In this document: positions 13,345 through 35,494 of the stretch, one piece after another | How the letters are laid out: each line of letters begins with the position of its first letter | How positions within the stretch are numbered: the first letter of the stretch is position 1 | Assembly: GCA_964428315.1 (NCBI GenBank) | Contig: CAYRXT010000012.1 | Location: 562 to 64,561, forward strand | Direction: 5' to 3' | DNA length: 64,000 nt | Origin: an uncultured Planctomycetales bacterium | GTDB lineage: Bacteria > Omnitrophota > Gorgyraeia > Zapsychrales > CAYRXT01 | Made by a program: the position numbers and the translations under genes | The notes under the pieces: generated by a model | What the model was told of the DNA's origin: nothing | Databases searched by the model: none | What the model saw: the letters and a program-made list of their open reading frames with translations, nothing else

Positions 13345-13358
13345 AAAGACAGGAGATC

Positions 13359-13730: not shown

Positions 13731-13733
13731 GGC

Positions 13734-21274: not shown

Positions 21275-21784
21275 GTGAAGGCCAGGACGGTCGTCGTCAA
21301 CGATAAGATGCAGAAGAATTACCGTTATTGTCGGACGGAGCCGGCCGGGAGACATTTCGCCGCGGAATTCCGGCCCGATCTCACGCCGAGAGAGATGCTC
21401 GCGCTCGGGGTGTTCGGGGGCAAATACATGACCGACTGCGGTGCGGAATTTCCCTCAAGCTGGTTCCGCGGGGCGAAATTATGCGCCGAACGCCATGATC
21501 CAAGGCTCAATCATTTCGGTGTCAGTGCCAGCCAGCCGCTCAGGGTGTGGGAGAGGAAGGGCTGGATCCATCCGGCGGACCCCCGGGGCTGGTTCCAGTG
21601 GTACTGTCGCTATTATATGGGCCGGCGCATGCCCGAGGAAGATCGGCGTCAGATCAAACGGTGGAAGGCCATGAAGCGCCATGCGGCCCAGATCAGAAAG
21701 CACTGCCCCCCGGGAGACGGCGGCTGCCGGCCGAGACAGCGCCAGGCCCTGCTGCACTGGGCCTACGACAGCCGGGCCATCTGA
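21275..21784 (+). CDS. Conserved hypothetical Cys/Trp/Arg-rich protein, last gene of the operon
   Basis: 169 aa, 10 nt after the Cfa stop. No family recognised. Confidence 0.45.
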   Translation: MKARTVVVNDKMQKNYRYCRTEPAGRHFAAEFRPDLTPREMLALGVFGGKYMTDCGAEFPSSWFRGAKLCAERHDPRLNHFGVSASQPLRVWERKGWIHPADPRGWFQWYCRYYMGRRMPEEDRRQIKRWKAMKRHAAQIRKHCPPGDGGCRPRQRQALLHWAYDSRAI

Positions 21785-21930
21785 GTACAGCGTAAGGCTC
21801 TTTATCCTTTTGTCCGAGTTTCTTTGACACGGACACAAGGGCATAGTAATATGATATCCACTAAGTGAAAGACAAGCTTGTGTCGGCATAACGGTTCATC
21901 ATGGAAGACCATAAAAAGGAGGTTGGACCA

Positions 21931-22356
21931 ATGGATAAAGCGACATTGATCAAAAACCTGAACGAGGACCTGGCTCACGAGTACAGCGCCATCGTCCAGT
22001 ACATCACCTACGCGGCCAAGGTGACGGGGCCCTACAGGCCTCAGCTGACGCAGTTTTTTCTCGCCGAGGTGGCGGACGAGCAGGGGCACGCGCAGTTCCT
22101 GGCGAACAAGATCGTGGCCCTTGGCGGAGAGCCCACCACGACGCCCGCCCCGGTCAAGGCCGCGAACACGGACCGCGAAATGGTGGGGGCCGTCCTGGAG
22201 GCCGAGCGCCTGGCCGTGAAGAATTACACGAAGAGGGCCAAAGAGGCGGATGAATTCGGCGACAAGGGACTGGTCGTCCAGATAGAGGACATGATCCGCG
22301 ATGAGAGCGGTCACTCGGAAGAGAGCGAGAGGATTTTAAAAGACTGGCCGATTTAA
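21931..22356 (+). CDS. Ferritin-like domain protein (bacterioferritin/Dps-like four-helix bundle)
   Basis: RBS AAGGAGG 7 nt before ATG 21931. Ferritin-like di-iron ligand pattern (LNEDLAHEYSAIVQYI....EQGHAQFLANKI...EAERLAVKNY). Confidence 0.7.
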   Translation: MDKATLIKNLNEDLAHEYSAIVQYITYAAKVTGPYRPQLTQFFLAEVADEQGHAQFLANKIVALGGEPTTTPAPVKAANTDREMVGAVLEAERLAVKNYTKRAKEADEFGDKGLVVQIEDMIRDESGHSEESERILKDWPI

Positions 22357-22473: not shown

Positions 22474-24342
22474 ATGAGCAAGCGCAAAAAGAAAAAAAGA
22501 GAAAGATCCGGGAAACGGCCGGTACAGGAAAAGGGTGCCGGTGACGCCGCGTTGCGCGCGCCTTCCGGTACGGCGCGCTGGATCTTTCCCGTCCTCCTGG
22601 TCCTGGTCACCGCGGTCTGTTTCTCTCCCTCTCTACGGGGCGACATAAACACATGGGATGACCAGGTCCATCTTTCCCGCCACAAGACCGTGCGCTCCCT
22701 TGAGCCGGAGAATATCCGGCGCATGTTTACCGAAACCGTCAACCGCACGTACATCCCCCTCACGACCCTGTCCTTCGCACTGGAATATCATTTCTTCGGC
22801 TACGATCCGTTCATCTATCACCTGGACAATATCCTGCTGCATATCGGTGTGGTCCTCTTGCTTTACGGGCTCGGGATCAGGCTCGGACTCGCGCCTCCAG
22901 CGGCCTTCGCGGGGTCGCTGATCTTCGCCGTCCATCCCATGCACGTCGAGTCTGTGGCCTGGGCCACGGAACGCAAGGATGTTCTGTATGCCTTCTTTTA
23001 TATTTTGTCCCTCCGGCTTTACACGGAATACGCGATAAGCGGAAGGAGGCGTCCTTATATTTTGAGCGTGCTCTGCGCGCTCTTGAGCATCCTGGCCAAG
23101 GCCATGGCCTTAAGCCTGCCACTGGTTTTGTTTGTGATTGACTGGTTTCTCAAGCGGCGGCGCGGCATCCGGCTGTTTCTTGAAAAGGTCCCCCACATGG
23201 CCGCGGTTTTCCCGATCGCATGGATCACGTATTCCCTCCATGCCCGGCCGGTAGGGGAGACCGGAGGCCAGGCCTTTTTGATCTGGGTATGGACGGCGGT
23301 TTTTTATCCCTGGAAATTTTTCTTTCCGGCCACCCTGGTCCCCCTATACGAAATGCCCCGGCCGGTCACGGTGACGAATCCCGTCTTCGGGGGAGCCCTG
23401 GCGCTCTTTGTCCTTCTTTTGGCGGCGGTTGTGCGCTTGCGCCGGCACCGGTTGTTTCTTTTCGCCGTGTTTTATTATTTTTGCTCGATATTTTTCCTTT
23501 TGCGTTACGATGATACCGTCGATCTGAATATCGTCGCCGACCGTTTTATGTATCTTCCCAGCGCCGGGATTTGTCTGTGGCTGGGCCATCTGGTTATCCG
23601 GGGCTTCAAGGAGATCAAGGCCCGACGGCCGGCCTTTTTCCCCGTGGTCCTCGCGCTTTGCGCGGCCGCGGCGGCCTGGCTTGGTCTCAAGACGTACCGG
23701 CTGACGTCCGTCTGGGAAAACAACAAGGCTTTATGGACGTATGTCAGCCGGCATTATCCCGAAAACCCGCATGCCCTGTTCGGGCTGGGGCAGGTCAGTC
23801 TCCGCGAAGGCGACCGGGAGGGCGCTTTGCGCTATTACCAGCGGGCTTACCGGAACAATTACCGTTCACCGAAAATTTTTAATAACCTCGGTGAGCTCTA
23901 TTACACGGAAGGAAAAAAAGAAAGGGCCTTCCGCCATTTCCAGACCGCCCTGAGGTATAATCCCGACTACATCCCCGCATTGAACAACCTCGGCGCTATG
24001 CTTATGGAAAAAGGCCGGTGGGCCGAAGCTTACGCCCTGATCAATCAGGGTCTGTCGATCGAGCCGGACTCCCTGGTCCTTCACCTGACCCTGGGCGACT
24101 GGTATTTGTACCGCGGAAGGGTACAGGAAGCGGTAGAGACCTTCCGCAGGGGGGCCGAAGGCACGAGGGATGTTGATCCTGAAAACGTCGCCAAACTTTA
24201 CAATCACTTGGGCGCGGCCCTTCTCAAAGAGGGGGAATCCGGAGAAGCGAAGGAGGCGTTTGAAAAGGCGCTCGAGATCCGGCCGGACTTTGAGAACGCC
24301 AGGCATAACCTGAAACAGATGGAGGCGTCCGGGAACCCTTGA
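22474..24342 (+). CDS. GT-C-fold membrane glycosyltransferase with C-terminal TPR repeats (TMTC/PMT-like, DUF1736-type)
   Basis: N-terminal polytopic domain with an acidic first-loop motif (INTWDDQVH) and a YIPLTTLSFALEYHFFG block. C-terminal ~230 aa of TPR repeats (ALFGLGQVSLREGDREGALRYYQRAY..NNLGELYY..ALNNLGAMLMEKG). 622 aa. Confidence 0.7.
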   Translation: MSKRKKKKRERSGKRPVQEKGAGDAALRAPSGTARWIFPVLLVLVTAVCFSPSLRGDINTWDDQVHLSRHKTVRSLEPENIRRMFTETVNRTYIPLTTLSFALEYHFFGYDPFIYHLDNILLHIGVVLLLYGLGIRLGLAPPAAFAGSLIFAVHPMHVESVAWATERKDVLYAFFYILSLRLYTEYAISGRRRPYILSVLCALLSILAKAMALSLPLVLFVIDWFLKRRRGIRLFLEKVPHMAAVFPIAWITYSLHARPVGETGGQAFLIWVWTAVFYPWKFFFPATLVPLYEMPRPVTVTNPVFGGALALFVLLLAAVVRLRRHRLFLFAVFYYFCSIFFLLRYDDTVDLNIVADRFMYLPSAGICLWLGHLVIRGFKEIKARRPAFFPVVLALCAAAAAWLGLKTYRLTSVWENNKALWTYVSRHYPENPHALFGLGQVSLREGDREGALRYYQRAYRNNYRSPKIFNNLGELYYTEGKKERAFRHFQTALRYNPDYIPALNNLGAMLMEKGRWAEAYALINQGLSIEPDSLVLHLTLGDWYLYRGRVQEAVETFRRGAEGTRDVDPENVAKLYNHLGAALLKEGESGEAKEAFEKALEIRPDFENARHNLKQMEASGNP

Positions 24343-24504
24343 AAAACCGGCGGAGGGTTCCCGTTGTTCATAAAAAATTTTGTCACGGCGCCGGCAGTAT
24401 GGTATACTCAATCCATACAACCTGAAACCGCGCGGCGTTGCAGCCGCGACGATCACCCATCCAACTGAATATCCAAAACAGGGGGATGGGATTTTTTTTG
24501 CCTT

Positions 24505-25950
24505 ATGGAGACAAAAACAAAGATCGCCTTTCTCTTGGTTCTCGCTCTGGCTGTCTGGGCGCGGACCGCTTCTCTGCCGGGAGAGGCCCTGTGCACCGAC
24601 GAGCTTTTTACCCGGCAGGCGGGGCTGGAGTTTTTCGGTTCGGGTCTGGACGCCGTGCGGTCGGACCTGGTCCACCCGCCGGTTTATTACGTCCTCGTCC
24701 ATTTGTTTTTGAGGGTTTTCGGCGATCATGCCTTAGGCCTGCGGCTGGTGTCTTTGCTCAGCGGCGTGGCATGCGTCGCCGTTACAATGTTCTGGACGGA
24801 GCGGAAAACGGGAAGGCCGTCGGCCGGCATGCTTGCCGGCGCGCTCCTGGCGGTTTCTTCTCCCATGATCTTCTACAGCCAGCAGGCGCGCAGTTACGCC
24901 CTGTACGCGCTGTTGTTCTTTCTTGTCATGGCGGCGGCGGATTGGGCATTGAGTTTCCCCGGACAAAGAGGACGCTGGTTAACGCTCTCTTTGCTTATCG
25001 CGCTGTTCGTGTTCACCCACTATATCGCGGTCCTGTATCTCGCGGCTCTGGGTCTGGGGATCCTGCTCAACGGCAGGACAAGGATCCGGCTTATCCTAAA
25101 ATATTTTCTGTCATGTCTCCCCGCGGCAGTACTGATCGGGGCCTGGATGTGTTTTCTCTGGCCGTCTTTCCAGGAAAGGGGAGGACTGGAAGGAAACCTT
25201 TCCTGGATCGAAACACCCTTGATTCATTCTCTCGCTTATGTGTTCGGGACGTTCAACGGCGCGCCGCCGGTCAATCACGGAACAGTGTTTTCTCTATTGG
25301 TCCTTTTTGGCCTGACGGCTGCTGTGGTCTGCCAAATGTTCATTCTAAGGACGGATGACCGGGCGGGGATCGACCGGCCGATCAAATTCTGCCTGGCGGC
25401 CGCCTTTTTTCCGCCGGCCGCGTTGTTTCTCCTGGCCCGGCCGCCGTTTTCCCTCCCGATCTGGGGGTTGAGGCATCTCCTTCCTTCCCAGGCCGCCCTG
25501 GTCGTTTTTCTTGTCCTGGGCCTTTGGCGTTTTTTCGGGGAAAGGAAAAAGATCCTGGTGCCGGCATGCGCGCTCCTTATCGGGCTTCAGGCGGGGGGCA
25601 GCGCGATGTGGCTTAATCCTCCCGTAAGAATGCCTTATGATAAGGTAGCCCGGGTCCTGGAGGACGGATATCCCCGGAGTTTCGAGGTTTTGGCCGCGTG
25701 GGACGGCATCGCCGGACCGGTCAATTATTATTTGAAGGAAAGGCCGTCCGTACAATTGATCCCCGAAAACGCGGACGGCCTGCCGGCAAGTTTCATCTTG
25801 CTGTACCGTCCGGCGATCGAGCGGGAGATGGCGTTTTATGAAAGGGCGCGCGACGCAGGATGGGAGGATATGGAAACGAAAGAATTCGACGCTTCTTACG
25901 GCCGCAAGGTCCTGCTGAAATTGATGAGCAACCCCCGGAGTGGACGATGA
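24505..25950 (+). CDS. GT-C-fold membrane glycosyltransferase, ArnT/PMT (GT39/GT83)-like
   Basis: About 13 TM helices. An early loop DE motif (CTDELF). Hydrophobic periodicity typical of undecaprenyl-phosphate-sugar-dependent transferases. 481 aa. Confidence 0.7.
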   Translation: METKTKIAFLLVLALAVWARTASLPGEALCTDELFTRQAGLEFFGSGLDAVRSDLVHPPVYYVLVHLFLRVFGDHALGLRLVSLLSGVACVAVTMFWTERKTGRPSAGMLAGALLAVSSPMIFYSQQARSYALYALLFFLVMAAADWALSFPGQRGRWLTLSLLIALFVFTHYIAVLYLAALGLGILLNGRTRIRLILKYFLSCLPAAVLIGAWMCFLWPSFQERGGLEGNLSWIETPLIHSLAYVFGTFNGAPPVNHGTVFSLLVLFGLTAAVVCQMFILRTDDRAGIDRPIKFCLAAAFFPPAALFLLARPPFSLPIWGLRHLLPSQAALVVFLVLGLWRFFGERKKILVPACALLIGLQAGGSAMWLNPPVRMPYDKVARVLEDGYPRSFEVLAAWDGIAGPVNYYLKERPSVQLIPENADGLPASFILLYRPAIEREMAFYERARDAGWEDMETKEFDASYGRKVLLKLMSNPRSGR

Positions 25951-26696
25951 CAAGACAGAAGGCCGTGATTGTCGTGCCATGTTTTAACGAGGCCAAACGC
26001 CTTCCGGTTGCAACATTCCGCAGATTCATGGGCATGAACAGGCATATCCGGTTTATATTCGTGGATGACGGGAGCACGGATGGAACGCTTTCGGTCCTCA
26101 GGGAACTCGCCGCGGACTCCCCGGACCGGGCCCTTGCGCTGCATCTCAAGCGGAATGCCGGCAAGGCCGAGGCGGTGCGGCAGGGGATGCTCAGGGCCGT
26201 GGAATACGGTCCGGATATTGTCGGATTCTGGGACGCGGACCTGGCCACGCCCCTGGAGGCTGTCCCTGAGCTGTTGGCTGTTTTCGCAAAACGGCCCATG
26301 GTCGAATGGATATTCGGCGCGAGGGTCCAGCTTCTCGGACGCAATATCCGGCGCCGGTCAATGAGGCATTACTCGGGACGAATTTTCGCCACCCTGGCCT
26401 CGCTGACGCTGGGGCTTGCCGTCTACGATACCCAGTGCGGCGCCAAGCTTTTCCGCTGCGACAATCTTTTGAAAGCCGTCATCCGCGAAAAATTCCGCAC
26501 GCGTTGGATCTTCGACGTGGAGCTGATCGCCCGCATGCGCAAGACATTCCGCGACGTCTTTGCGCCCCAGGAGGTCATCTTTGAGTATCCCTTGACGGAA
26601 TGGATCGATATCGAAGGTTCGAAAGTGAAGGCGCTGGATTTTCTCAGGGCCTTCGGCGATTTGCTGAAGATATGGATTTATCTTTTGAAGCGGTAA
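25947..26696 (+). CDS. GT2 polyprenyl-phosphate glycosyltransferase (Dpm1/ArnC-like)
   Basis: ATGA overlap with the GT-C gene. AVIVVPCFNEAKRL....FIFVDDGSTDGT...DADLATP...YDTQCGAKLF are the canonical DXD/ED motifs of dolichol-/undecaprenyl-phosphate sugar synthases. The ORF-track 25860 start is an over-extension. Confidence 0.8.
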   Translation: MTRQKAVIVVPCFNEAKRLPVATFRRFMGMNRHIRFIFVDDGSTDGTLSVLRELAADSPDRALALHLKRNAGKAEAVRQGMLRAVEYGPDIVGFWDADLATPLEAVPELLAVFAKRPMVEWIFGARVQLLGRNIRRRSMRHYSGRIFATLASLTLGLAVYDTQCGAKLFRCDNLLKAVIREKFRTRWIFDVELIARMRKTFRDVFAPQEVIFEYPLTEWIDIEGSKVKALDFLRAFGDLLKIWIYLLKR

Positions 26697-27900
26697 GCTC
26701 ACTGAGCAGTGATCTGTACAAGGCGTGCGTCTCCCTGGCGACGTGGGCCCAGCTGAAGGACTTGAGGACGCGCCGGCGGCCGGCCTTGCCCATCCGGCGG
26801 CGCAGGGCCTTATCGTCGACGAGCTGGTTGATGGCCCGGGCCAGGTCCTTTTCAAAGGCCTTCGCGGATTCGGCCTTCATCTGGGCTGAGTCGCCGTTTT
26901 TCACCGGCACCAGAATGCCGGTCTCCCCGTCCGCCACGGCCTCTTTGATGCCTCCCACCGCGCTGGCCACCACGGGCGTTTCGCAAGCCATGGCCTCGAG
27001 GTTGATGATCCCGAAAGGCTCGTAGACAGACGGACAGCAGAAGACCGCGGCGTGGGAATACAGCGCGACCTTAGCCTGCAGGTCGATGATATTTTTGATC
27101 CAGATGATGCCGCCTCGGGCCTTTTCGACCGCCGCCACATGCTCTTCCATCTCGAGCAGGATCTGGGGGGTGTCGGCGGCGGAGGCGCAAAAGACGACCT
27201 GTATCTCCTCCTTAAGATAAGGGATCGCGTTCAAAAGATGGAAGATGCCTTTTTGCCGGGTGATCCGACCGACAAAGAGAACATAGGGGCGCGAAAGGTC
27301 AATGCCGAGGGATTCGATTGCCCGGGGCGACCGGGTCGGCGTATATTCTTTCGGGTCGATGCCGTTGTGAATGATATGGATTTTTTCCGGCGAGACTTGG
27401 AAATGGCCCAGGATGTCTTGACGGGTTTCCTCTGATACGGCCACGACGGCGTCGGCCATCTCAAGGGCGGTCTTTTCAACCCAGCAGCTGAAATCGTATC
27501 CTCCGCCGAGCTGTTCCCGTTTCCACGGCCGAAGCGGTTCCAGGGAATGCGTGGTGACGACCAGGGGAATAGAATAATTGAGTTTGGCCAGGATGCCGGC
27601 GAAATGGGTGTACCAGGTGTGGACGTGCACGATATCGGCGTCGATCCGGCTCATGTTGAATGCGTTATTTCTCTGGACGGCGTCGAACACGCTCTTCAAG
27701 GGTTTGGGAGCCGAGCCCTTGCGTCTGGAGGGCGGAAATCCCCTCACCTTAAGGGTTTTTTCGTGAACCTTCTGTTTGCCGAAACAGCGGACCTCGACCC
27801 TGCAGAGCTTGGCCAGCTCGCGGCTGAGATAAGACACGTGAATGCCAGCCCCGCCGTAGATATGGGGCGGATACTCGTTGGATAAAAGAAGGACTTTCAT
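26644..27900 (-). CDS. GT4 family glycosyltransferase (glycogen-synthase/MshA-like retaining GT-B)
   Basis: MKVLLLSNEYPPHIYGGAGIHV is the GT4 N-terminal signature. The EX7E-type C-terminal region (PSVYEPFGIINLEAMACETPVVASAVGG) is present. The 3' end overlaps the convergent GT2 by ~50 nt. Confidence 0.85.
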   Translation of the reverse strand: MKVLLLSNEYPPHIYGGAGIHVSYLSRELAKLCRVEVRCFGKQKVHEKTLKVRGFPPSRRKGSAPKPLKSVFDAVQRNNAFNMSRIDADIVHVHTWYTHFAGILAKLNYSIPLVVTTHSLEPLRPWKREQLGGGYDFSCWVEKTALEMADAVVAVSEETRQDILGHFQVSPEKIHIIHNGIDPKEYTPTRSPRAIESLGIDLSRPYVLFVGRITRQKGIFHLLNAIPYLKEEIQVVFCASAADTPQILLEMEEHVAAVEKARGGIIWIKNIIDLQAKVALYSHAAVFCCPSVYEPFGIINLEAMACETPVVASAVGGIKEAVADGETGILVPVKNGDSAQMKAESAKAFEKDLARAINQLVDDKALRRRMGKAGRRRVLKSFSWAHVARETHALYRSLLSELTASKDKSISSANRRRP

Positions 27901-28103
27901 ATTCGGGGTCCCGCAGCTTGAATGCTATTTTATAATAAAATATTCCGGCTGTCCCAAAGTATTTTGTCAAACTTCCGGAAAATGAGAGAATAATGCGAGT
28001 AAGGGGAGGGGCTTATGTGAACGAAGAAATCCCTTGTTGTTCAATAAAGGAAGACCTAAAATAAACACAACATTCGACGAAGCCATTAGGACGGGAGGTG
28101 AGC

Positions 28104-28307
28104 ATGGCGTTCCTGCAATGGGTCAACACAAAGATCAGCAAAATGACGTATTGGGATATCGGCATTCTCAAGCTGTGCCTGGTCGCCTTTACGCTCATGA
28201 TCGCGAGTCTTTTTCCACGTCTGACGCAGGTGTCCTGGCCCTGGTACGGCGCGGTGTTTTTCGTGAGTTATCTCTATTTGATGTATAAATTATTCATTAA
28301 GAATTGA
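28104..28307 (+). CDS. Small two-TM membrane protein
   Basis: RBS GGGAGG 5 nt before ATG 28104. 67 aa with two hydrophobic helices. Confidence 0.35.
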   Translation: MAFLQWVNTKISKMTYWDIGILKLCLVAFTLMIASLFPRLTQVSWPWYGAVFFVSYLYLMYKLFIKN

Positions 28308-28322
28308 CCGGGACAAAAGGCC

Positions 28323-28835
28323 ATGCACGTGTCCGCGCACTTTACCTGCAATTTGACCATTCTGGTCCTCGGCGTTTCTCTTGTCCTGGCTTTGGTCTGG
28401 GTGATGCTTCTGCGCAGATCCCTGCGACGGGAGAGGCGCCGGCAGTTTTTCCCCTTTCTTGGCATGTATTTTGACGACGGTCTTATGGGTTTCTATCTCG
28501 TTAATGAAAGTCAGCATCCGGCCCGGTCTGTCGTGATCGAGGATATCCCCGTGACTGTGGATTACGGGTTCAAGAAGCACCTGCTTCTGAAGTTCGAGGC
28601 CATCGATCTGCTCAAACCGGGTGAGACGATGAAACTGGATTACCGGGTCTGGGAAGGCGACGCCCCTTTTGCGGAGGGCGTCTCGGAGGATCTGGCCGGC
28701 CAGCTGACGGCCTCACTCCAGGAGGTGAGGATTCATTACCGCAATTTGAGCCGCGCCGGTTTTCGCGCCGTCCTTTCCAAACAGGGAAAACGTCTGGTCA
28801 TCGACCGTATCATTCCCGATAAACAAGACAATTGA
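28323..28835 (+). CDS. Hypothetical membrane-anchored protein
   Basis: N-terminal TM (LTILVLGVSLVLALVWVMLL) followed by a soluble domain. No family recognised. Confidence 0.4.
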   Translation: MHVSAHFTCNLTILVLGVSLVLALVWVMLLRRSLRRERRRQFFPFLGMYFDDGLMGFYLVNESQHPARSVVIEDIPVTVDYGFKKHLLLKFEAIDLLKPGETMKLDYRVWEGDAPFAEGVSEDLAGQLTASLQEVRIHYRNLSRAGFRAVLSKQGKRLVIDRIIPDKQDN

Positions 28836-28916
28836 CAACAGGAGTGTGTCCCGTGACGGACATGGTCTGTCTGCGCGGATACCCAAGTATGGGGGGCTTT
28901 ATCAGCAGCCGTTATC

Positions 28917-30761
28917 TTGAGAAAACAGACACTTGAAAGAACCGTTATCCTTTGCTTAAGCCTCCTTGTCTCCTATCTGGTCGGTGTGGCGTGGCGCATG
29001 GAGGTGAACTATTTCGACAGTTACAGCATTCTCATCAACGCACGCATTTTGGCCCACGGGACGAACCTGCCGTATGCCTGGATCCGCCCGCCGCTTCTGC
29101 CGGCCTTGCTGATACCTTTCTTTCTGATTGAGAACATGACGGGCCTGCCGGAATTTGGCTATACGGCCGCGCATCTTTTCATGGCGGGGATATTCGCGGT
29201 TTTTGTCTATATGGCCAAGGAGTTCTTTGTTCTCTTCCTGGAGAGGCCCTGGCCGTGGATCACCGCGGGGTTGTTGTCGCTCAATCCTGTCCTCGTTCAC
29301 CAGGCTCCCTTTATTAAAGAAGATCTGCTGGCGGCGTTTCTGGCAGCGGCGGCCTTGTTCTCTTTCCTGCGCTGGAAACAAAAAGGGGGGGGCGTCCGTC
29401 TTTGCGCGACCAGCTCCTTGATCGCGTTTTCTCTCTTGGCCCGTTATAACATCGCGCCGGTCCTTTTTTTCCTGGTCGTTGTCTTTACACTTATCCCGCG
29501 GCAGAGGCCTCTGCCCTGGAGAGAGCTCTGGCAGGTTCTCGTCTTTCTCATCATTATCCCGGCGGGGATTTTCGCCGGGACGCAGGTTTTCATTTATGCG
29601 GCACTGGATATCGCGCCGCTTCACCGGGCGCCGGCGCAGGCCTGGACCGACCTCAGGCATTTTTTCATGACGACGCGGACGTCCGAATCCCCCCTTGAGA
29701 ATTTCGGGTTTCTTTTCTATTCGGTTTCCTGGCCGCTGTGCCTCAGCGCGTTATACGGGGCCGTTGTGGCCCTGCGGCACAAGGCGCGCGGGGCGGTCTT
29801 CTGCGGGTTGTGGTTCCTCGCCGTTTTCTTGCTTCAAACATATTTTTTCGGCCATAAGGAGGCCAGGTACCTGATGCCCGGGCTCATACCGTTGTATTTT
29901 TTTGCGGTATTGGGTTTGAAATCCTTCATGGAGATAATGGGGCAAAAGAATGTCCGCGGCTGTTTTCGCGCGGTGTTCTTTATCGCGCTGTTGATGATTC
30001 CCCTTAACAATGCCCTGCGCGAGTGCGCGAAATTCCTCGACCCATTCTACGCGAAACCGGCCGCGGAAAATGTCAGCCTCATGGCCCGGCAGGTCGCCGG
30101 GCCCGGGAAAGCTGTCTACTGGGTGGGGGAAGGGTATCCTCTTGTCCCCGCTGATTATGCTTTCCTGCCTGCCGACGATTACGGTTACATTTATCATCTG
30201 GATACCAATGCCCTCATGTATTATCTCGGAGAGAAGGTCCAGGGGTTCAGGGGGGCGTTCTTTTTTCCGTCATCCCTGGAGGCGCAGGCGCGGCCAAGGG
30301 TGTCAGGACAGAGCCTGAAACGGCACGGGATATTTGTACGGGGCGTCAAAAATTACGTGGACGATGGCGATGTCCTGGTGGTGAACATCGAGCCGCGGCC
30401 CTACACGGCGGCAACCCGGCCCAAGACCCTCGATCCGCTTTATATCCAGAAGGTCCGCCGTCTTTCATTCAGTCTGTCGAAAGGGCCGGTTGGCCGGTCT
30501 CTGGTATTTGCCTCTGATGCCGGCGGAGGGGCGGTCTTTCTGTCAAAAAAAAGAAACGGTTTCCAGCTTCGGGTCGAAGGACTGCCGGAAGGCTATTATG
30601 AGCCTTATCTGCGTGTGCCCGGAAGTAAGAATGATCCGAGCTTCCGTCCGTTTTCCGTTAAAGACGGCGTGGGACAGGCCTTTTTCGCGCATCCACTTCC
30701 CGGGGACGTGGGACGCGTCATCCTCCTCACGTACGATCTCGTCCGGGCGTATTTTCCTTAA
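28917..30761 (+). CDS. Large polytopic membrane protein, probable GT-C-fold glycosyltransferase (PMT_2/ArnT-like)
   Basis: 614 aa with more than 10 TM helices in the N-terminal two-thirds and a C-terminal soluble domain. Early loop motif NYFDSY. Architecture as for the 24505 gene. Confidence 0.55.
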   Translation: MRKQTLERTVILCLSLLVSYLVGVAWRMEVNYFDSYSILINARILAHGTNLPYAWIRPPLLPALLIPFFLIENMTGLPEFGYTAAHLFMAGIFAVFVYMAKEFFVLFLERPWPWITAGLLSLNPVLVHQAPFIKEDLLAAFLAAAALFSFLRWKQKGGGVRLCATSSLIAFSLLARYNIAPVLFFLVVVFTLIPRQRPLPWRELWQVLVFLIIIPAGIFAGTQVFIYAALDIAPLHRAPAQAWTDLRHFFMTTRTSESPLENFGFLFYSVSWPLCLSALYGAVVALRHKARGAVFCGLWFLAVFLLQTYFFGHKEARYLMPGLIPLYFFAVLGLKSFMEIMGQKNVRGCFRAVFFIALLMIPLNNALRECAKFLDPFYAKPAAENVSLMARQVAGPGKAVYWVGEGYPLVPADYAFLPADDYGYIYHLDTNALMYYLGEKVQGFRGAFFFPSSLEAQARPRVSGQSLKRHGIFVRGVKNYVDDGDVLVVNIEPRPYTAATRPKTLDPLYIQKVRRLSFSLSKGPVGRSLVFASDAGGGAVFLSKKRNGFQLRVEGLPEGYYEPYLRVPGSKNDPSFRPFSVKDGVGQAFFAHPLPGDVGRVILLTYDLVRAYFP

Positions 30762-31086
30762 GCCTCGTTAATAGAATCTGTGGGTGCCTAAATAGCCAAA
30801 CATGGCTTAAGTCATTGATAATAAACAACTTGCCAATAAATAAACCTCTGAATTTTTTGAGTTCAGATTCAAGAATAGCCGTAGGGGCCGTGGGATCTGT
30901 GGGAAACCTTCGAGAGTTTCGGTTTTCCACAGATTCCATGGCCCATTTTAGTCGATTATTACCCACAGATTCTGAGAAAGAGCCTTCCTTAAATATGTTT
31001 CGCACCGGCTCTTTTCCGTTTAACGCATTCCGGATCCCGCCGACGATTCCGGCAACGGTATCTTTGCGGGGTATGAGGGAACCTTA

Positions 31087-32646
31087 TTACGGCACGGGTG
31101 GTTTTTTTACGGGGGGATTCTTTACTTTGGGCAGGACACAGAAGATCCCGTAAAGGATAAAGGGAATCAAATAGAGGACTGCCATCTTGACCGCCACTAC
31201 GGGATCGAAGGATTTGTATTTTTGCAGGACTTGCGCGGGAAGGGCCTGCGCCGTGTGTGTGGCCCGGGTCAGGAGGTAGATGACATAAAGCGGTCCCGCC
31301 TTGAAAACCGCCTTGGCCATTTCCGCGGGATGGAAGAGAAGGGTTTTCCAGATCTCGGCCTGATAGGTGTTGTTCGACCAGTCATGAACGCCGAAGTACT
31401 GTTCGGTCAGGGTCATGGTCAGGTTAGTGGCGTTGCCTTCGAAAGCGAGCATTGACATCATCGGCAGGATCGCCAGCGTAATCATCACCCGCCGCAGCAC
31501 AGGTTTACTTTCCACGGATTGAAGAAGGGCGCAGAAAGGATAGACCACAAGGGGGATGGCGGCCGCGAGGATATACCGGTAACCGTACCATCCGCCCTGA
31601 GTCCGGTACATAATAATGCCGTAAAGATTGAATACAAGCGGAATAAGAAGGACCAAAAGATATCTTTTAAGGGGAGAGCGCGGTATAAAGAAAAGATAGC
31701 CAAGCCCGATAAGAAGGAAAGGCGCCGTGAAGACAAGCCCCCAGTCTATGCCGATGAGGATGTGCGCAAGACGCCGGATATAGAACAGGGGTTCTTTGAT
31801 CATGTAAAACTGGGAGATCAGTCTGGAAGCGTATCCTTCGGTATAAGTATACATTGAAGGCCAGATTTTGAAGACCAAGATTAGGGTGAAGGCCACTGCG
31901 AAGACGGCGCCCAGACCCTGTAGGACCATGCCGCGGTTCCGCCCGCGGTTTTTCTGGATCAGGAGGACCACGGGCCAGAAGACGGCAAGGGCGATGTTAT
32001 TGAGCCTCACCAGGACCGTCAGGCCGCTGAGGATGCCCACAAGGACCGCGTAGCCTGATCCGATTCCGGAAGACACCCGGTTTTTCTTGATCTCGGCGAA
32101 GTTTTTAAGAAGAAGGAACACGAAAACGCATTGTATGAAGAATTCATAAATATGGGAGAACAGCGGACGCCTGAAAGCAAAAAGCGGCAGGCCCTGTGCA
32201 AGGACCATCAGGATGACGCACAGCGCGGCATGCTTTCGGGAGAAGTGGAAACCGAGGCCTTCAAAGAGCAGGAAACACCCCAGCCAGAAATAGACCACGG
32301 AGGATACGATGAACCCGAATTCGGTGAAACTGAGCATGGTATTTTTTTTCGTCCGCTCTTCAAAGATGCCGGGATTCCCGATCCGGTCGAACTGGGAAAA
32401 AGCCAGGACAAAGGGCGAGGCCATGAGGCCGGCCCCGATGGAGCATTCCGGACCGTCGGCGCGGTAGCCTTTCTCGGCGAAGGCCATCTCTTTGTCGTAT
32501 GAAGGAAATTCCCCGAAGACCAGGGCCGTGGAATGCGCCAGATAATCGTAATCGTCGTGGGTGTACATCAGGCCGTTGTACTGAAGCTTGTACGGCCGAA
32601 GGAGGAGGAAGAGACAAAGAAAAAAGAAGAGGGTGATTCTTTTCAC
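31087..32646 (-). CDS. Polytopic membrane protein, possible GT-C-fold glycosyltransferase
   Basis: 519 aa and multi-TM. The first-loop acidic motif YTHDDYDY is GT-C like. The start codon is uncertain: GTG 32646 or an internal ATG. Confidence 0.5.
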   Translation of the reverse strand: MKRITLFFFLCLFLLLRPYKLQYNGLMYTHDDYDYLAHSTALVFGEFPSYDKEMAFAEKGYRADGPECSIGAGLMASPFVLAFSQFDRIGNPGIFEERTKKNTMLSFTEFGFIVSSVVYFWLGCFLLFEGLGFHFSRKHAALCVILMVLAQGLPLFAFRRPLFSHIYEFFIQCVFVFLLLKNFAEIKKNRVSSGIGSGYAVLVGILSGLTVLVRLNNIALAVFWPVVLLIQKNRGRNRGMVLQGLGAVFAVAFTLILVFKIWPSMYTYTEGYASRLISQFYMIKEPLFYIRRLAHILIGIDWGLVFTAPFLLIGLGYLFFIPRSPLKRYLLVLLIPLVFNLYGIIMYRTQGGWYGYRYILAAAIPLVVYPFCALLQSVESKPVLRRVMITLAILPMMSMLAFEGNATNLTMTLTEQYFGVHDWSNNTYQAEIWKTLLFHPAEMAKAVFKAGPLYVIYLLTRATHTAQALPAQVLQKYKSFDPVVAVKMAVLYLIPFILYGIFCVLPKVKNPPVKKPPVP

Positions 32647-32995
32647 TTAAACCGTCATGATCCTGTTTGTCCGGTGTTTGGTGACCATCATAACATAAAT
32701 TAAGCTTGAGTTGGGCGAAAATATTTAGGTCTGTGATTTGAGTCTGTCTTTGAGTCTGTCATTTAAGCCCTATATTTCCGTGATGGTTCAAAGAGCGCTC
32801 CCGTACTTCCCGTCCTGGATGTCCAGGCATCCCGGCGGAGTGGGCAGGTCCCGAAAACGTAATGGGTTCCTTGTTATACAATAAACGCCCCTTCAATCTT
32901 CACATGCAATTTTCTCTTCTCCCTCAATTTTCCCTTGCCTTTCTTTGACTAAAGAGATAACATACATTCTCGTTTTGGATTATGAATCAAGGAGG

Positions 32996-35494
32996 ATGAA
33001 AATGCCTGACCTCGATAGATTATTTCGTATCCGTCCCCGCATTGTGCTTGTCATGTGGTTCCTCTCGTTATGCGCTGTTTGTTTGAAGGCGGAAGCCTTT
33101 GAAAACATTGAATATATCGGCCAGTTTTCGCCGTCATTATCCAGTCCCGTTGATATCGCCCTCCTGGATAACCAGGAGATTATCATCCTTGATGAACAAG
33201 ACGCGAGGATCATCTTCCTGGATCCCCAGGGGCAGACAATGCGCATTATCGGGGCCCGGGGATCCCGAACGGGGCAGTTCCGCAGGCCCCGCTCATTAGC
33301 CGTTTCACCGCGGGGCACGATCATTGTGGCCGATACCGGCAACGACAGGATCCAGGTCTTCGATACCAAGGGTGATTTCCTTTTCGCTTTCGGGAACAGC
33401 GGTTCCCGCAGCGGTGAATTCAGCGGGCCTGCGGGAGTGGCCGTGGACCCGGACGGCTACATCTATGTTGCGGATTATGGCAACAAGAGGATTCAAAGTT
33501 TCACGCCCCGCGGGGTCTTTATCAGCGCCTTGGCGACCGATGAGCGGCCGCTTGATATTGAACTGGACTTGCAGAAAAATATTTATGTCCTGCAGCCGGA
33601 AACCGGCGTCATCGCGGTCTATTCTCCCGACGGGGAAAAGAAGGAGGCCGTATCTTTTAAGACGAAAGGCCGTAATTTCGTCAAAAGGGGCAGGGCCATC
33701 GCCGTCGACCGGCGCGGGGATCTTTACATGACCGAGAGGGGCGAGCATAGCGTCAAAAAGACGGACGGGCAGAACCTTCTTCTGTCTTTCGGCTCACAGG
33801 GAGAAGGCCGGGGGCAGTTCGAAGATCCCGCCGGCCTGGCCGTGGACAAGACGGACAGGATTTTTGTGGCCGACGCCGCCAACCAACGCATTCAGGTGTT
33901 CAAGGTCAGCGGGACGCAAAAGAAGCCCTTAGAGACCGGAGCCGCGCTGGAAATGCCCGTCATTGAATTCGCTTCGGTCATTCCTTCGGGTGAGGGGATT
34001 GCCGACCTCTTCTATCAACCGGGAAAAGGTCTCTTTGCCTTGTCGGATGAGCGCGACGCCGTCTTAAGCTTTGATGCCGACCGCAAGGTCTTCGGCCGGG
34101 AGGGCCGTGAATCGGGAGAATTCCGCGGTCCGGAGGCCTTATTTGTGGATCACGAGGGAAGACTATTTGTCGCGGACAGCCAAAACCAGCGTGTCCAGAT
34201 TTTGTCTCCGGAAGGCCGTCCTCTTCATGCGTTCGGGACGGGCGGAGACCTGAATGGCCAGTTCCGCTATCCCAGAGGGATAGCGGTCAATTCGAGAGAA
34301 AGGATTTATGTCGCGGACACCTTAAACGACAGGATCCAGATTTTCAGCAAAGACGGTATTTTTCTTAAAGCCTTCGGCGATGAACTGCTACCCGGTGGAG
34401 AAAAGACCCTTCAGTCGCCCGAAGCCCTGGCCGTCGATTCGCGTGACCGGATTTATGCCGTGGATACCGAACATCACCAAATATCGGTGTTTGACGAGCT
34501 CGGTACGAGGCTGATGGTCTTGGGCAAACGCGGGGGAGGCCCGGGAGAATTCAATCAGCCGGTGGACGTGGCGGTGGACGAAAAGGACTTCCTTTATGTC
34601 GCCGACCGGGGGAACAACCGGGTCCAGGTTTTTGACCCGCGGGGACGCTGGCTGTTCGCTTTCGGTGCCTATGGCCAGGGGCCGAGCTTTTTCCCGTCCC
34701 TGTCGGGGGTTGAAGCCGCTTCTGGCAAGATCTATGTAGCCAATGAAGGAATGGAACAGATCAAGGTCTTTGATTTTGAACGGGAAAAGTTCGGATTAAC
34801 CGGTTCGACGGATCAAGAGGTTGTGCCCCTGGGGAAAAAGACGGAAGGGGATGCGAACGAGACAACGGCTGCAGTTCACGAGAAGAAAGTCCCCGAAAAG
34901 GATGTCCCCAGTACAGAGGATCCAGTTCAGGAAGAGAAAGCATCCGTAGCCGTAGAGCCCGAGGTTAAAGAAAAGGCCCGGCGGCAATCCGTTCAGTCAG
35001 AAAATGAAACGGAAAAAGCAACGGAAAAAGTGTCAGAAAAGAAAGCGGAAAAAGTAATGGAAGAAGAAGCGGCAAACGAAGCGGAAAAAGAAACGGACGC
35101 GTCTCTGGCCGCGGAAGACGATATCCGAAGAGTGCTGGATGAAACCCGTGTTTATGTCACCAAGACTTTTTACCTCCCGCCAAGCGGTTCCCCTCCCGCG
35201 GATGCCATAATGCAGAAAGTCCGGCTCCTTACGACGAACGAAGCCCTGAAGACCCTGGCCGAGAAGACGGGCATGCCCATAGAGAAAGTGAAAAACTACG
35301 CTAAGGTCGAACATGAGGAAATGGACGATGGCGGCACGTTCAAGCTGACCTTGAGCGTTCCCAAGGATCTGAGGGAGAAAGAGCACAGATCTTCCGGACC
35401 CGAGAAGAGAAGGAAGGCCGGGAATTCGCCGCAGGAAGACGATGTCCTGTCCCAAGACGGTCCGCCGTCCGTCGGAACGCGGCTGACCCCTTAG
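32996..35494 (+). CDS. NHL-repeat beta-propeller protein with a C-terminal Glu/Lys-rich low-complexity region
   Basis: RBS AGGAGG. Start is ATG 32996 or 33002. Signal peptide. Multiple NHL repeats (GQFRRPRSLAVSPRGTIIVADTGNDRIQVFD, GEFSGPAGVAVDPDGYIYVADYGNKRIQSF, and so on, at least 10 copies). Followed by an E/K/A-rich segment and a C-terminal domain. Confidence 0.8.
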   Translation: MKMPDLDRLFRIRPRIVLVMWFLSLCAVCLKAEAFENIEYIGQFSPSLSSPVDIALLDNQEIIILDEQDARIIFLDPQGQTMRIIGARGSRTGQFRRPRSLAVSPRGTIIVADTGNDRIQVFDTKGDFLFAFGNSGSRSGEFSGPAGVAVDPDGYIYVADYGNKRIQSFTPRGVFISALATDERPLDIELDLQKNIYVLQPETGVIAVYSPDGEKKEAVSFKTKGRNFVKRGRAIAVDRRGDLYMTERGEHSVKKTDGQNLLLSFGSQGEGRGQFEDPAGLAVDKTDRIFVADAANQRIQVFKVSGTQKKPLETGAALEMPVIEFASVIPSGEGIADLFYQPGKGLFALSDERDAVLSFDADRKVFGREGRESGEFRGPEALFVDHEGRLFVADSQNQRVQILSPEGRPLHAFGTGGDLNGQFRYPRGIAVNSRERIYVADTLNDRIQIFSKDGIFLKAFGDELLPGGEKTLQSPEALAVDSRDRIYAVDTEHHQISVFDELGTRLMVLGKRGGGPGEFNQPVDVAVDEKDFLYVADRGNNRVQVFDPRGRWLFAFGAYGQGPSFFPSLSGVEAASGKIYVANEGMEQIKVFDFEREKFGLTGSTDQEVVPLGKKTEGDANETTAAVHEKKVPEKDVPSTEDPVQEEKASVAVEPEVKEKARRQSVQSENETEKATEKVSEKKAEKVMEEEAANEAEKETDASLAAEDDIRRVLDETRVYVTKTFYLPPSGSPPADAIMQKVRLLTTNEALKTLAEKTGMPIEKVKNYAKVEHEEMDDGGTFKLTLSVPKDLREKEHRSSGPEKRRKAGNSPQEDDVLSQDGPPSVGTRLTP

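Follow-up and report, generated by a model that had tools for sequence, protein, structure and literature searches.

Four large polytopic proteins lie within 10 kb, at positions 22474-32646 of the window (the whole 64-kb stretch of DNA analysed, probably of an Omnitrophota-like, uncultivated bacterium), together with a GT2 gene of the Dpm1/ArnC type, which raises the question whether these genes make up one dedicated pathway. The original prediction had taken them for a single PMT/TMTC-like system for protein O-mannosylation in the periplasm. Re-derivation of the ORF list recovered every gene named for this region and placed P7, for which no strand had been given, on the minus strand. The features are:

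22474-24342, plus strand: P1, 622 aa, GT-C glycosyltransferase with about six C-terminal TPRs predicted to be periplasmic, TMTC/TfpW-like architecture
24380-24408, plus strand: promoter-like site, TTGTCA-17-TATACT with TG, scoring 10/12 in a consensus scan
24505-25950, plus strand: P2, 481 aa, ArnT/PMT_2-type GT-C
25947-26696, plus strand: GT2a, 249 aa inside the ORF 25860-26696, TM-less GT2 of the ArnC/GtrB/DPMS clade
26644-27900, minus strand: GT4, 418 aa, glycogen-synthase-type glycosyltransferase (TIGR02149)
28323-28835, plus strand: P5, 170 aa, single-TM protein
28917-30761, plus strand: P6, 614 aa, TTG start, GT-C of the PMT_2 superfamily
31087-32646, minus strand: P7, 519 aa, GTG start, GT-C-fold protein of a family without Pfam or NCBIfam model

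Strand changes and gaps divide P1-P7 into at least four transcription units. The promoter-like site sits inside the 163 bp that separate P1 from P2 and suggests that P2 and GT2a form a unit of their own; it is a consensus pattern match only, from a scan that returned 9 sites in total versus 6.2 +/- 2.5 in shuffles, i.e. no excess. GT2a is translationally coupled to P2, as had been proposed: stop and start codons overlap in ATGA, with GGAG 8 nt upstream. P5, with one TM at residues 11-29, immediately precedes P6 in the same orientation, and neither homologues nor a Pfam or NCBIfam match were found for it. GT4 is convergent with GT2a, as described before, their 3' ends overlapping by 53 bp, and its identity could be refined through TIGR02149 (520.8 bits versus a cutoff of 302.4) next to GT4/GT1 Pfam domains; this cytoplasmic enzyme is probably unrelated to the GT-C genes. 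P1, P6, P7 and GT2a have homologues elsewhere and are therefore real genes.

P1, P2, P6 and P7 represent four different sequence families, all of the GT-C superfamily. P2 matches PMT_2 with 28.9 bits (gathering score 26.1, E 1.6e-6, model positions 2-154 of 160), while NCBIfam Pmt and Agl23 match weakly and far under cutoff. Scanning the sequence collection with P2 found no homologues, and its class therefore depends on one Pfam match just over threshold. P6 itself has no Pfam match; a search with it returned 276 representatives at E<=0.001, and among 41 aligned homologues PMT_2 matches 37 (best 1e-13), PMT 12 and Glyco_transf_22 eight. In hhalign comparisons the P6 family also aligns with those of P1 (92.6%, E 4.6e-7) and P7 (95.3%, E 2e-8). 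In both, the acidic motifs (YFDSY/WDD/GDDxSY) line up, and P6-P7 additionally pairs a conserved Arg (HKEARYL versus GWYGYRYL).

Each of the four proteins carries an acidic residue or pair right behind TM1, as foreseen by the original prediction: D62-D63 in P1 (invariant across 25 homologues), D33-E34 in P2, D34 in P6 (DYFDSY; invariant in the 41 homologues, as are R317 and G281) and D31-D32 in P7 (invariant in 33 homologues, together with Y354-G355-Y356-R357). Conservation thus applies to the P1, P6 and P7 families, the P2 motif being read from a single sequence. Basic N-termini and positive-inside charges place these motifs in a predicted periplasmic loop 1. For P2, hydropathy predicts ~9-10 TM segments, followed by a C-terminal tail of ~110 aa in the periplasm, and P6 ends in a ~250-aa predicted periplasmic domain without fold assignment. 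The invariant Asp pairs and the conserved Arg argue for catalysis and speak against the idea that at least one of these proteins is no polyprenyl-P-monosaccharide transferase, but a non-catalytic subunit (as PIG-U/GAB1), a polyprenyl-PP-glycan oligosaccharyltransferase or a polymerase. P7 homologues do adjoin Wzy_C and Bac_transf, which are Und-PP-glycan pathway genes; however, the best matches are the monosaccharide transferases ALG12, ArnT and Pmt4, and neither an STT3 Pfam match nor an STT3/PglB-type WWDYG periplasmic domain was found, leaving this idea very improbable.

What could P1 act upon? Its membrane domain (residues ~34-413) is followed by the C-terminal TPRs that had been noticed earlier (residues ~417-618); Pfam TPR_2 (E=1.4e-28) and its relatives match at residues ~420-620. 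Residues 1-35 hold 13 K/R and the cytoplasmic-side loops are basic (RRRP, RLRRHR, KEIKARRP), which is why loop 1 is predicted to be periplasmic; hydropathy and loop charges predict 11 TM helices, with an amphipathic helix formed by loop 4 and the TPRs on the outside. The model of TMTC likewise comprises an 11-TM GT-C domain, an amphipathic helix in loop 4 and lumenal TPRs (PMC7801869), so that P1 shares with TMTC1-4, the metazoan GT105 protein O-mannosyltransferases, the order of 11-TM GT-C domain and lumenal or periplasmic TPRs. Five TMTC motifs have equivalents in P1 at comparable spacing (PMC7801869): M1 (DD, loop 1), M2 (SYRPL versus TYIPL), M3 (RxD; R167-K168-D169), M4 (Lys; K209...S214) and M7 (ERxxY versus D356-R357-x-x-Y360). 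However, M5 (DW, loop 4) and M6 (PxxP, TM9) are absent, and the DUF1736 model does not match P1.

A Gram-negative precedent also exists, and the earlier statement to the contrary was too strong. TfpW of P. aeruginosa is a characterised GT-C+TPR pilin O-glycosyltransferase for D-arabinofuranosyl residues, an inner-membrane GT-C of 646 aa with a cytoplasmic N-terminus, 11 predicted TM helices, DDX in periplasmic loop 1, C-terminal periplasmic TPRs and a polyprenyl-P-sugar donor (bioRxiv 10.1101/2020.04.19.049825). In architecture, P1 has the TfpW layout. The tfpW gene immediately follows pilA, which encodes its substrate, and is close to the D-Araf donor genes, whereas P1 adjoins no pilin gene and has no conserved neighbour. 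By analogy with TMTC and TfpW, the acceptor of P1 is probably a protein or other macromolecule gripped by the TPR domain.

GT2a is the likely enzyme for making a lipid-linked sugar donor. PF00535 matches it (E 1.7e-18), and the single sequence retrieves ArnC (1.9e-8) and DPMS (1e-4) from the PDB. With the family profile the best solved relatives are ArnC (4e-17), GtrB (4e-14) and DPMS (4e-13), which assigns GT2a by sequence to the polyprenyl-phosphate glycosyltransferase clade, in keeping with its earlier designation as Dpm1/ArnC-type; its DAD motif parallels DADLQNP of ArnC. No TM segment was found in GT2a (maximum hydropathy 1.21), and its 12 orthologues (39-51% identity) are all TM-less. 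Mycobacterial Ppm1 likewise has a catalytic domain devoid of TM helices. A processive synthase was rejected, as there is neither a TM helix nor a conserved QxxRW. Counting against the donor role, the TM hairpin with which ArnC and GtrB end is missing from GT2a; the protein reaches 47 bits with the ArnC equivalog (cutoff 529) and also matches, more weakly, soluble GT2/GT81 enzymes such as GpgS. Nor is the ArnC/ArnT system, which makes undecaprenyl-P-L-Ara4N and transfers its sugar to lipid A, reproduced as such: arnA, arnB, arnD and arnE/F are absent here, and P2 remains under every ArnT- or Pmt-specific NCBIfam cutoff. Elsewhere, a large polytopic protein adjoins GT2a orthologues at 8/9 informative loci, Pfam assigning four of the neighbours to the GT-C clan (YfhO twice, PMT_2 and PTPS_related once each).

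The original prediction had proposed to look for conserved linkage with the Dpm1-like gene, and around GT2a orthologues the adjacency recurs. Around P1 the clustering is not conserved: P2, P6 or P7 relatives occur beside P1 homologues in 0/80 genomic loci, a GT2a-like gene is near in only 2-3, and no neighbour family is common to more than 10. P6 homologues neighbour GT2, YfhO and GT87/MptA_B genes, sharing operons either with YfhO and GT87 or with a GT2 and GT-Cs of the MptA_B family. Homologues of P7 are embedded among WecG, Bac_transf, Wzy_C, epimerase, NeuB and GT2 genes, i.e. in O-antigen/EPS-type polysaccharide loci, with a small GT2 and an epimerase immediately upstream at two of them (L004, L005). 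Because of these contexts, the acceptor of P7 is probably an O-antigen-like glycan or a polysaccharide of the cell surface. For P2 and P6 the acceptor may be glycan, lipid or protein.

The contexts of P6 and P7 would also suit GT-Cs acting in sequence on one non-protein envelope glycoconjugate (a polysaccharide or glycolipid that is built or decorated in the periplasm), as in mycobacterial lipomannan/arabinan synthesis (MptA/B, PimE, Emb/Aft) or the lumenal ALG3/9/12 steps, with the TPRs of P1 as scaffold or polymer-binding module. One GT2a orthologue (locus L091) indeed lies amid up to six polytopic membrane proteins, and the window carries a further YfhO/flippase-like/GT2/deacetylase cluster. 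We nevertheless regard this pathway as rather unlikely: the four genes are never together elsewhere in the loci compared and occupy separate transcription units here, genes for an initiating phosphoglycosyl transferase, for Wzx/Wzy or for export are absent at 22-33 kb, and the characterised GT-C+TPR families found, TMTC and TfpW, both act on proteins.

The single O-mannosylation system, in which GT2a would make polyprenyl-P-mannose and all four GT-Cs would mannosylate envelope proteins, e.g. the adjacent NHL-repeat protein, appears less probable still. In its favour, some P1 homologues bear the JGI name 'protein O-mannosyl-transferase', a DPM1/ArnC-like GT2a is coupled to a PMT_2 protein, and beside TfpW there are streptococcal GtrB/PgtC2 or Pgf, where GT2-made polyprenyl-P-hexose serves a GT-C that O-glycosylates exported proteins (PMC11092751), and actinobacterial Ppm1/Pmt protein O-glycosylation by the same scheme (see also PMC12331936). 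However, among the families by which the proposal was to be judged, PMT_2 matches P2, but PMT, DUF1736 and YfhO match none of the four; PMT-family enzymes carry PF02366, and eukaryotic PMTs MIR too, neither of which is present in P1, P2, P6 or P7. TMTC motifs are missing in P1, the clustering is not conserved and is split over several units, and P6 and P7 homologues reside in multi-GT-C or polysaccharide loci. Actinobacterial and streptococcal systems glycosylate exported proteins, and no Ser/Thr-rich candidate substrate was found here. The NHL-repeat protein carries a signal peptide, but a Ser/Thr-rich region is missing, so that nothing marks it as a substrate. Finally, no evidence picks mannose as the sugar. 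The region is not a demonstrated protein O-mannosylation system; its acceptors, like its sugar, are ones that we infer.

In three-component systems, a polyprenyl-P-sugar synthase in the cytoplasm works with a flippase and a GT-C to modify periplasmic or extracellular glycan (PMC11127046; see also PMC5836110 and PMC7389260). GtrA/B/C, CsbB/GtcA/YfhO and PPPRS/MATE/GT136 follow the same logic, which the P7-family contexts fit. These systems encode a flippase, whereas none (GtrA-like or MATE) was found at 22-33 kb. The second cluster, at 41.8-48.5 kb and thus outside 22474-32646, includes:

41788-44133, minus strand: fifth GT-C of the window, YfhO family, 781 aa (PF09586 YfhO, E 5e-18, 65.3 bits)
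46571-47563, plus strand: flippase-like membrane protein (LPG_synthase_TM 1.5e-37; TIGR00374 58.8 bits)
47566-48483, plus strand: GT2b (GT2 9.3e-33; ArnC NCBIfam 147.3 bits; PgfS 106 bits)

GT2b is far more ArnC-like than GT2a, to which it is 32% identical, and has a C-terminal TM at 237-255. These three genes form a more canonical three-component set and are a possible alternative donor source.

Taken together, the observation of clustered GT-Cs was confirmed, and its interpretation is partly supported: the region is a loose, non-conserved neighbourhood of known kinds of enzymes and not a single operon. Our comparisons turned up no genome closely related to this one and would therefore miss a lineage-specific pathway, and the four GT-Cs in 10 kb could share such a pathway. 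With moderate confidence, we favour four periplasm-facing GT-Cs in separate units, most likely with different acceptors, and GT2a as a soluble or peripheral enzyme. At the cytoplasmic face, GT2a would load polyprenyl (undecaprenyl) phosphate with a single sugar taken from a nucleotide sugar, and the lipid-linked monosaccharide would be flipped by a flippase encoded outside 22474-32646. P2 would then pass the sugar to a periplasmic acceptor, its loop-1 Asp/Glu being catalytic or acceptor-binding, and P1, P6 and P7 would work in the same mode, expressed separately and most likely on different acceptors. TfpW, TMTC, streptococcal GtrB/PgtC2 and the three-component systems are precedents.

The cluster at positions 22474-32646 comprises four polytopic membrane proteins (designated P1, P2, P6 and P7), the glycosyltransferases GT2a and GT4, and a small ORF, P5; a gene for an NHL-repeat protein adjoins it. 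Every ORF of the original prediction was recovered with identical coordinates in our ORF list:

22474-24342, + strand: P1, polytopic membrane protein, 622 aa
24505-25950, + strand: P2, polytopic membrane protein, 481 aa
25947-26696, + strand: GT2a, Dpm1/ArnC-type family 2 glycosyltransferase, 249 aa
26644-27900, - strand: GT4, convergent with GT2a
28323-28835, + strand: P5, 170-aa ORF with one TM segment
28917-30761, + strand: P6, polytopic membrane protein, TTG start
31087-32646, - strand: P7, polytopic membrane protein, GTG start
32945-35494, + strand: NHL-repeat protein

The ATG of GT2a and the stop codon of P2 overlap as ATGA and a GGAG sequence is located 8 nt upstream, in agreement with the presumed translational coupling of both genes. 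This is the only tight coupling within the cluster. P1 and P2 are separated by a gap of 163 bp, which contains a near-consensus promoter-like site (TTGTCA-17-TATACT), and this gap together with the strand changes and the remaining gaps indicates at least four transcription units. At their 3' ends, the convergent GT2a and GT4 genes overlap by 53 bp (26644-26696). The region 28001-36000, which carries P5, P6, P7 and the NHL protein gene, exhibits a G+C content of 0.529-0.539 as compared to 0.56-0.58 in the flanks, and this lower G+C raises the possibility that the block was acquired independently of P1-P2-GT2a.

All four polytopic proteins are almost certainly GT-C enzymes, as initially proposed, and each was recognized by a different route. 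P2 matches the Pfam model PMT_2 over nearly its full length (28.9 bits, gathering score 26.1, E 1.6e-6). P6 itself has no Pfam match, but an exhaustive HMMER search yielded 276 representative homologues, of which 41 were aligned; PMT_2 is present in 37 of these, PMT (PF02366) in 12 and an Alg9-like family in 8. Profile-profile alignments using hhalign then connected the P6 family with the P1 family (92.6% probability, E 4.6e-7) and with the P7 family (95.3% probability, E 2e-8). In these alignments the motifs YFDSY, WDD and GDDxSY coincide, and a conserved Arg is superposed between the P6 and P7 families (HKEARYL versus GWYGYRYL). The direct alignment of the P7 and P1 families was not significant (0.6%), and the link between these two therefore runs via the P6 family. 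No significant hhalign match was obtained between the P6 family and the single P2 sequence, for which no relatives were found in scans of genome and metagenome contigs, and phmmer searches of the single P1 (N-terminal domain), P2, P6 and P7 sequences against PDB sequences returned noise only. A heuristic count of "GT-C-like" ORFs (at least 6 TM segments and an acidic motif after TM1) lacked specificity, as it missed P6 and P7 and picked up an RND pump, and was kept out of the evidence.

The GT-C membrane fold, i.e. a conserved N-terminal TM module with a long first extracytoplasmic loop, is likewise recognizable. An acidic first-loop motif, as claimed for all four proteins, is indeed present following TM1: D62-D63 is invariant in 25 P1 homologues, D34 in 41 P6 homologues and D31-D32 in 33 P7 homologues, while D33-E34 of P2 is seen in a single sequence. 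Short basic N-termini in all four proteins, with 13 K/R among residues 1-35 of P1, would place these acidic residues in a periplasmic loop 1 according to the positive-inside rule. For P1, the AF2 helices and the charge clusters in the loops (RRRP, residues 190-194; KRRRGIR, 226-232; RLRRHR, 321-326; KEIKARRP, 379-386) suggest an arrangement of 11 TM helices in which loop 4 harbors an amphipathic helix and the TPRs face the periplasm. The same topology has been proposed for the TMTCs (PMC7801869) and was in part demonstrated experimentally for TfpW (bioRxiv 10.1101/2020.04.19.049825). An assignment as O-antigen ligases or Wzy-type polymerases, which would have contradicted a GT-C identity, is at odds with the absence of a Wzy_C (PF04932) match in P1, P2, P6 and P7.

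Classification of these enzymes as PMT-type did not hold. Neither PF02366 nor MIR, a domain of the eukaryotic PMTs, is matched by any of the four proteins at E<=0.01, and both are still absent at E<=10 from the P1 N-terminal domain, P2, P6 and P7. Apart from the 12 of 41 P6 homologues, PF02366 matches only 1 of 120 P1 homologues, and the NCBIfam Pmt model scores 27.9 bits with P2 at a cutoff of 800. Among the families named beforehand (PMT_2, DUF1736, PMT, GT39/83 and YfhO), PMT_2 was thus confirmed for P2, whereas DUF1736, PMT, GT39/83 and YfhO remained without Pfam match in P1, P6 and P7 even at E<=10.

For P1, a TMTC architecture had been put forward. TPRs are matched by Pfam at residues 420-620, and a predicted 11-TM GT-C module followed by C-terminal TPRs accords with this view, while DUF1736 and the motifs M5 and M6 are lacking. 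Table 4 of PMC7801869 lists seven TMTC motifs, against which P1 was checked. Counterparts with comparable spacing exist for M1 (DD in loop 1; D62-D63), M2 (SYRPL; TYIPL, residues 92-96), M3 (RxD; R167-K168-D169), M4 (Lys; K209 ... S214) and M7 (ERxxY; D356-R357-x-x-Y360). In contrast, no counterpart was found for M5 (DW in loop 4, the DUF1736 segment) and M6 (PxxP in TM9). In the P1 family, loop 4 shows a Pro-rich sequence (PLYxxPxPVxLxNP) devoid of DW, in agreement with the absence of a DUF1736 match at E<=10. P1 thus has the architecture and most donor-binding motifs in common with TMTCs, but since one defining feature failed it was not filed as a member of the TMTC family. The second relevant comparison is TfpW, a Gram-negative GT-C enzyme with TPRs that O-glycosylates pilin (bioRxiv 10.1101/2020.04.19.049825). 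The tfpW gene is located directly downstream of its pilin substrate gene, whereas P1 has no such neighbor: the two ORFs upstream (21275-21784 and 21901-22356) exhibit neither a TM segment nor a pilin-like N-terminus.

GT2a carries the GT2 domain PF00535, and its assignment as a Dpm1/ArnC-type enzyme was corroborated. Its closest solved relatives in single-sequence searches are ArnC (1.9e-8) and Pyrococcus DPMS (1e-4), the family profile retrieves ArnC (4e-17), GtrB (4e-14) and DPMS (4e-13) from the PDB, and these three proteins account for the top seven distinct PDB sequences. DAD at residues 98-100 aligns with DADLQNP of ArnC. The score against the ArnC equivalog is 47.3 bits (cutoff 529). 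Unlike ArnC and GtrB, GT2a lacks the C-terminal TM hairpin; no TM segment was detected (maximum 19-residue hydropathy 1.21). In this respect, it resembles the TM-less DPM1-type enzymes. The same end point is shared by all 12 orthologues found in metagenomes, which are 39-51% identical, ~245 aa in length, and also TM-less. Conserved motifs of the family are VVPCYNE, FVDDGSTD, GKAEAVR, FWDADLATP, YDTQCGAK and FDVEL. QxxRW is not conserved in the alignment, in which only W187 is retained and the preceding residues vary. Lack of a conserved QxxRW, along with the absence of TM helices, argues against the alternative that GT2a is a processive synthase.

A role of GT2a in making a lipid-linked sugar donor is best supported by the recurrent pairing of the family with different GT-C families. 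Of the orthologue loci, 9 are long enough to judge, and in 8 of them a large polytopic membrane protein is encoded directly beside the GT2. By Pfam, these neighbors belong to YfhO (L095 and L098), PMT_2 (L100, 62.5 bits) and PTPS_related (L101), the latter of which we take to be a family of the GT-C clan; the remaining ones have no Pfam match. On these grounds, GT2a is probably a polyprenyl-phosphate sugar synthase. Two orthologue loci deserve mention on their own. In L091 (1193-9912 of the locus, on a 569-kb contig), the GT2a orthologue (50% identity) has six polytopic membrane proteins (318-535 aa) around it, four of which were scanned and gave no Pfam match, and this may be another multi-GT-C cluster of unannotated families. 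In L097 (5763-8276, a high-GC metagenomic contig), the GT2a-like region is part of a longer ORF (837 aa, 7 predicted TM segments), which may represent a GT2-membrane-domain fusion or an artefact of ORF calling in high-GC DNA.

The best homologues of the window proteins are found in Omnitrophota MAGs and do not exceed 51% identity, which suggests an Omnitrophota-like source; the collections searched yielded no close relative. The P1 family is very large: more than 2900 matches were obtained among 8000 candidates scored in the protein search (best ~50% identity), and at least 572 loci were detected among species-representative genomes, distributed over Omnitrophota, "Planctomycetales" MAGs, Bacteroidota, Elusimicrobiota, Spirochaetes, Ignavibacteriae, Chlorobiota, Cloacimonadota and Planctomycetota. 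To assess conservation of the gene neighborhood, the ORFs within 10 kb on each side of 80 P1 homologues (L007-L086) were searched. Relatives of P2, P6 or P7 were present in none of the 80 loci, as judged by phmmer and family HMMs, and merely 2-3 GT2a-like genes were found, so that no conserved linkage of P1 homologues with the Dpm1-like gene is apparent in these loci. The original prediction had united the cluster into one protein O-mannosylation system. The enzymes indeed lie side by side with a putative donor synthase, and P1 carries TPRs, but given the missing linkage and the absence of PMT domains we consider such a unified system improbable.

Tandem paralogy is common in the P1 family, as the 80 loci contain 37-41 additional paralogues, amounting to 117-122 P1-like ORFs in total; in a further locus (L006) three P1-like ORFs follow each other in a row. 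All-against-all clustering detected no neighbor family in more than 10 of the 80 loci, and the commonest neighbors are generic (LacI, ABC-F, histidine kinases, PRTase, sigma-70, T2SSE/PilB ATPase). The T2SSE/PilB-type ATPase occurs near P1 homologues in 6 of the 80 loci, weakly recalling the link of TfpW with pilin. In two other Omnitrophota loci (L009 and L018), different, unrelated polytopic proteins with DD motifs are encoded beside P1 paralogues together with small GT2s. In L018, a divergent operon (2285-9797) adjoins the P1 homologue. Besides a 559-aa polytopic protein with HIDD following TM1, it encodes a PRK-kinase fusion of 687 aa, a HAD phosphatase, a double nucleotidyltransferase (578 aa), a GT2a-like GT2 of 237 aa that is TM-less, and a further ORF of 201 aa, and it looks like a complete pathway from sugar activation to the GT-C. 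Multi-GT-C neighborhoods thus recur in the phyla examined, while the particular P1/P2/P6/P7 combination of the window does not.

The P7 family, which has no Pfam model, occurs in a different setting. In four independent contigs (L001, 10001-11539; L002, 10001-11518; L004, 10001-11515; L005, 10001-11560), the homologues reside in polysaccharide loci of the O-antigen/EPS type. In three of the four, they adjoin WecG-family and Bac_transf genes with Wzy_C close by, the Wzy_C proteins being encoded by separate genes, and the flanks also contain epimerases, NeuB, radical-SAM enzymes and GT2s. Directly upstream of the P7 homologue, L004 and L005 carry a 253-260-aa GT2 and an SDR epimerase, a gene order that suggests a GT2-epimerase-GT-C side-chain module. 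The small GT2s upstream of P7 homologues (L004, L005 and L002) were rejected as GT2a orthologues, being only 21-24% identical. One P7 homologue (P0128), which is 734 aa long and matches 94% of P7 at 46% identity, possesses C-terminal TPR domains, indicating that TPR fusion arose in more than one GT-C family. Homologues of P6 also have glycosyltransferase neighbors: one with PMT_2 adjoins a GT2 (L087), and another is located near a GT2 and a MptA_B-family GT-C (L089). In L088 (505-6163), a P6 homologue with PMT_2 (642 aa) forms an operon with a YfhO/DUF6541 protein (714 aa) and GT87 (528 aa); on this metagenomic contig, three different GT-C families are thus encoded consecutively.

The remaining genes within the cluster offer few clues. 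GT4 matches TIGR02149 (glycogen synthase, Corynebacterium type) over its full length with 520.8 bits (cutoff 302.4) and was treated as not related to the GT-C genes. In the NHL protein, previously named as a candidate substrate, a signal peptide (…CLKAEA/FENI) is followed by ScyF-like NHL repeats, and the tail is rich in E/K. Neither a Ser/Thr-rich region nor PEP-CTERM was detected, and no feature singles the protein out as a substrate. Directly downstream, an ATP-grasp protein (YheC/D-like, STM4014-like) is encoded at 35596-36765. In contrast to three-component systems, a dedicated flippase (GtrA-like, MATE or similar) is not encoded with GT2a and P2: between 22 and 33 kb, the four GT-Cs are the only ORFs with at least 3 TM segments, and neither a flippase nor a GtrA-like or other small polytopic ORF was found. 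A second set of genes in the window, outside the cluster, looks closer to a canonical three-component system:

41788-44133, - strand: YfhO-family protein, the fifth GT-C of the window
44291-45532: radical-SAM enzyme
45415-46503: GFO/IDH oxidoreductase
46571-47563: flippase-like LPG_synthase_TM protein, the only flippase-like gene, adjoining GT2b
47566-48483: GT2b, a second GT2 with C-terminal TM, much closer to ArnC than GT2a is (ArnC 147 bits, PgfS 106 bits)
49258-50697: TPR and polysaccharide deacetylase

These genes could supply donor to the GT-Cs at 22474-32646. The stretch just upstream of the cluster holds lipid-modification genes (16912-21264; CMAS-type methyltransferase, flavin amine oxidase, DUF1365 and cyclopropane-fatty-acid synthase). 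Further upstream, the span 13005-15201 encodes an exosortase-system-associated TIGR04073 protein (13005-13730), a GT2 matching TIGR04283 ("arsenosugar biosynthesis glycosyltransferase"; 13734-14429, 212.7 bits, cutoff 182), and thereafter a DUF547 protein.

Taken together, we lean towards the following scheme. At the cytoplasmic face, GT2a would load polyprenyl phosphate with one sugar, a flippase encoded by an unlinked gene would carry the lipid-linked sugar across the membrane, and P2 would pass it on to an acceptor in the periplasm. P1, P6 and P7 would be independent GT-Cs that use the same donor class for different acceptors. A polyprenyl-phosphate donor is suggested indirectly by the adjacent ArnC/GtrB/DPMS-like GT2a and by the conserved Arg at which the P6 and P7 families align. 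For P1, protein is the most plausible acceptor because the characterized GT-C enzymes with TPRs that we found, i.e. TMTC1-4 and TfpW, act on proteins, although by this analogy a role of P1 in protein glycosylation is slightly less than an even bet. For P7, the gene contexts of its family make surface polysaccharide the most plausible acceptor.

GT-C enzymes determine which structures bacteria expose on their envelope, a field that to our knowledge is almost unexplored for Omnitrophota and neighboring uncultivated phyla as far as glycobiology is concerned. Pairs of GT2 and GT-C enzymes are established for lipid A (ArnC/ArnT) and for protein glycosylation in Actinobacteria. They are likewise established in three-component systems for O-antigens and teichoic acids (PMC11127046), and for streptococcal proteins via GtrB/PgtC2 and Pgf (PMC11092751). 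Three points are new. First, a very large bacterial family whose only annotation is "tetratricopeptide repeat protein" contains a GT-C catalytic domain with TMTC-like motifs and lacks a conserved genomic partner. Second, the Pfam-less "hypothetical proteins" of the P7 family are recognized as GT-C enzymes, whose usual setting is O-antigen/EPS-type loci. Third, diverse GT-Cs recurrently accompany a TM-less ArnC/GtrB/DPMS-like GT2 family, which marks this family as a likely synthase of lipid-linked sugar donors. As GT2/GT-C pairs are already established for several acceptor classes, the novelty is modest, and what the present result offers for now is soundly improved annotation, not a system of a new kind. 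Read jointly, these points would permit a further-reaching and rather doubtful interpretation: the P1-type family might be a bacterial counterpart of TMTC/TfpW that O-glycosylates proteins of the periplasm or the cell surface, using single sugars supplied by polyprenyl-phosphate donors made by TM-less DPM1/ArnC-like GT2s, Omnitrophota might have expanded it into paralogue families with different protein clients, and P7 might represent a further new GT-C family. If TPR-bearing enzymes of this kind do act on proteins, protein O-glycosylation of the TMTC/TfpW type would reach many phyla, and if this applies to P1, the window would contain part of a largely unrecognized capacity for general protein glycosylation in uncultivated diderm phyla.
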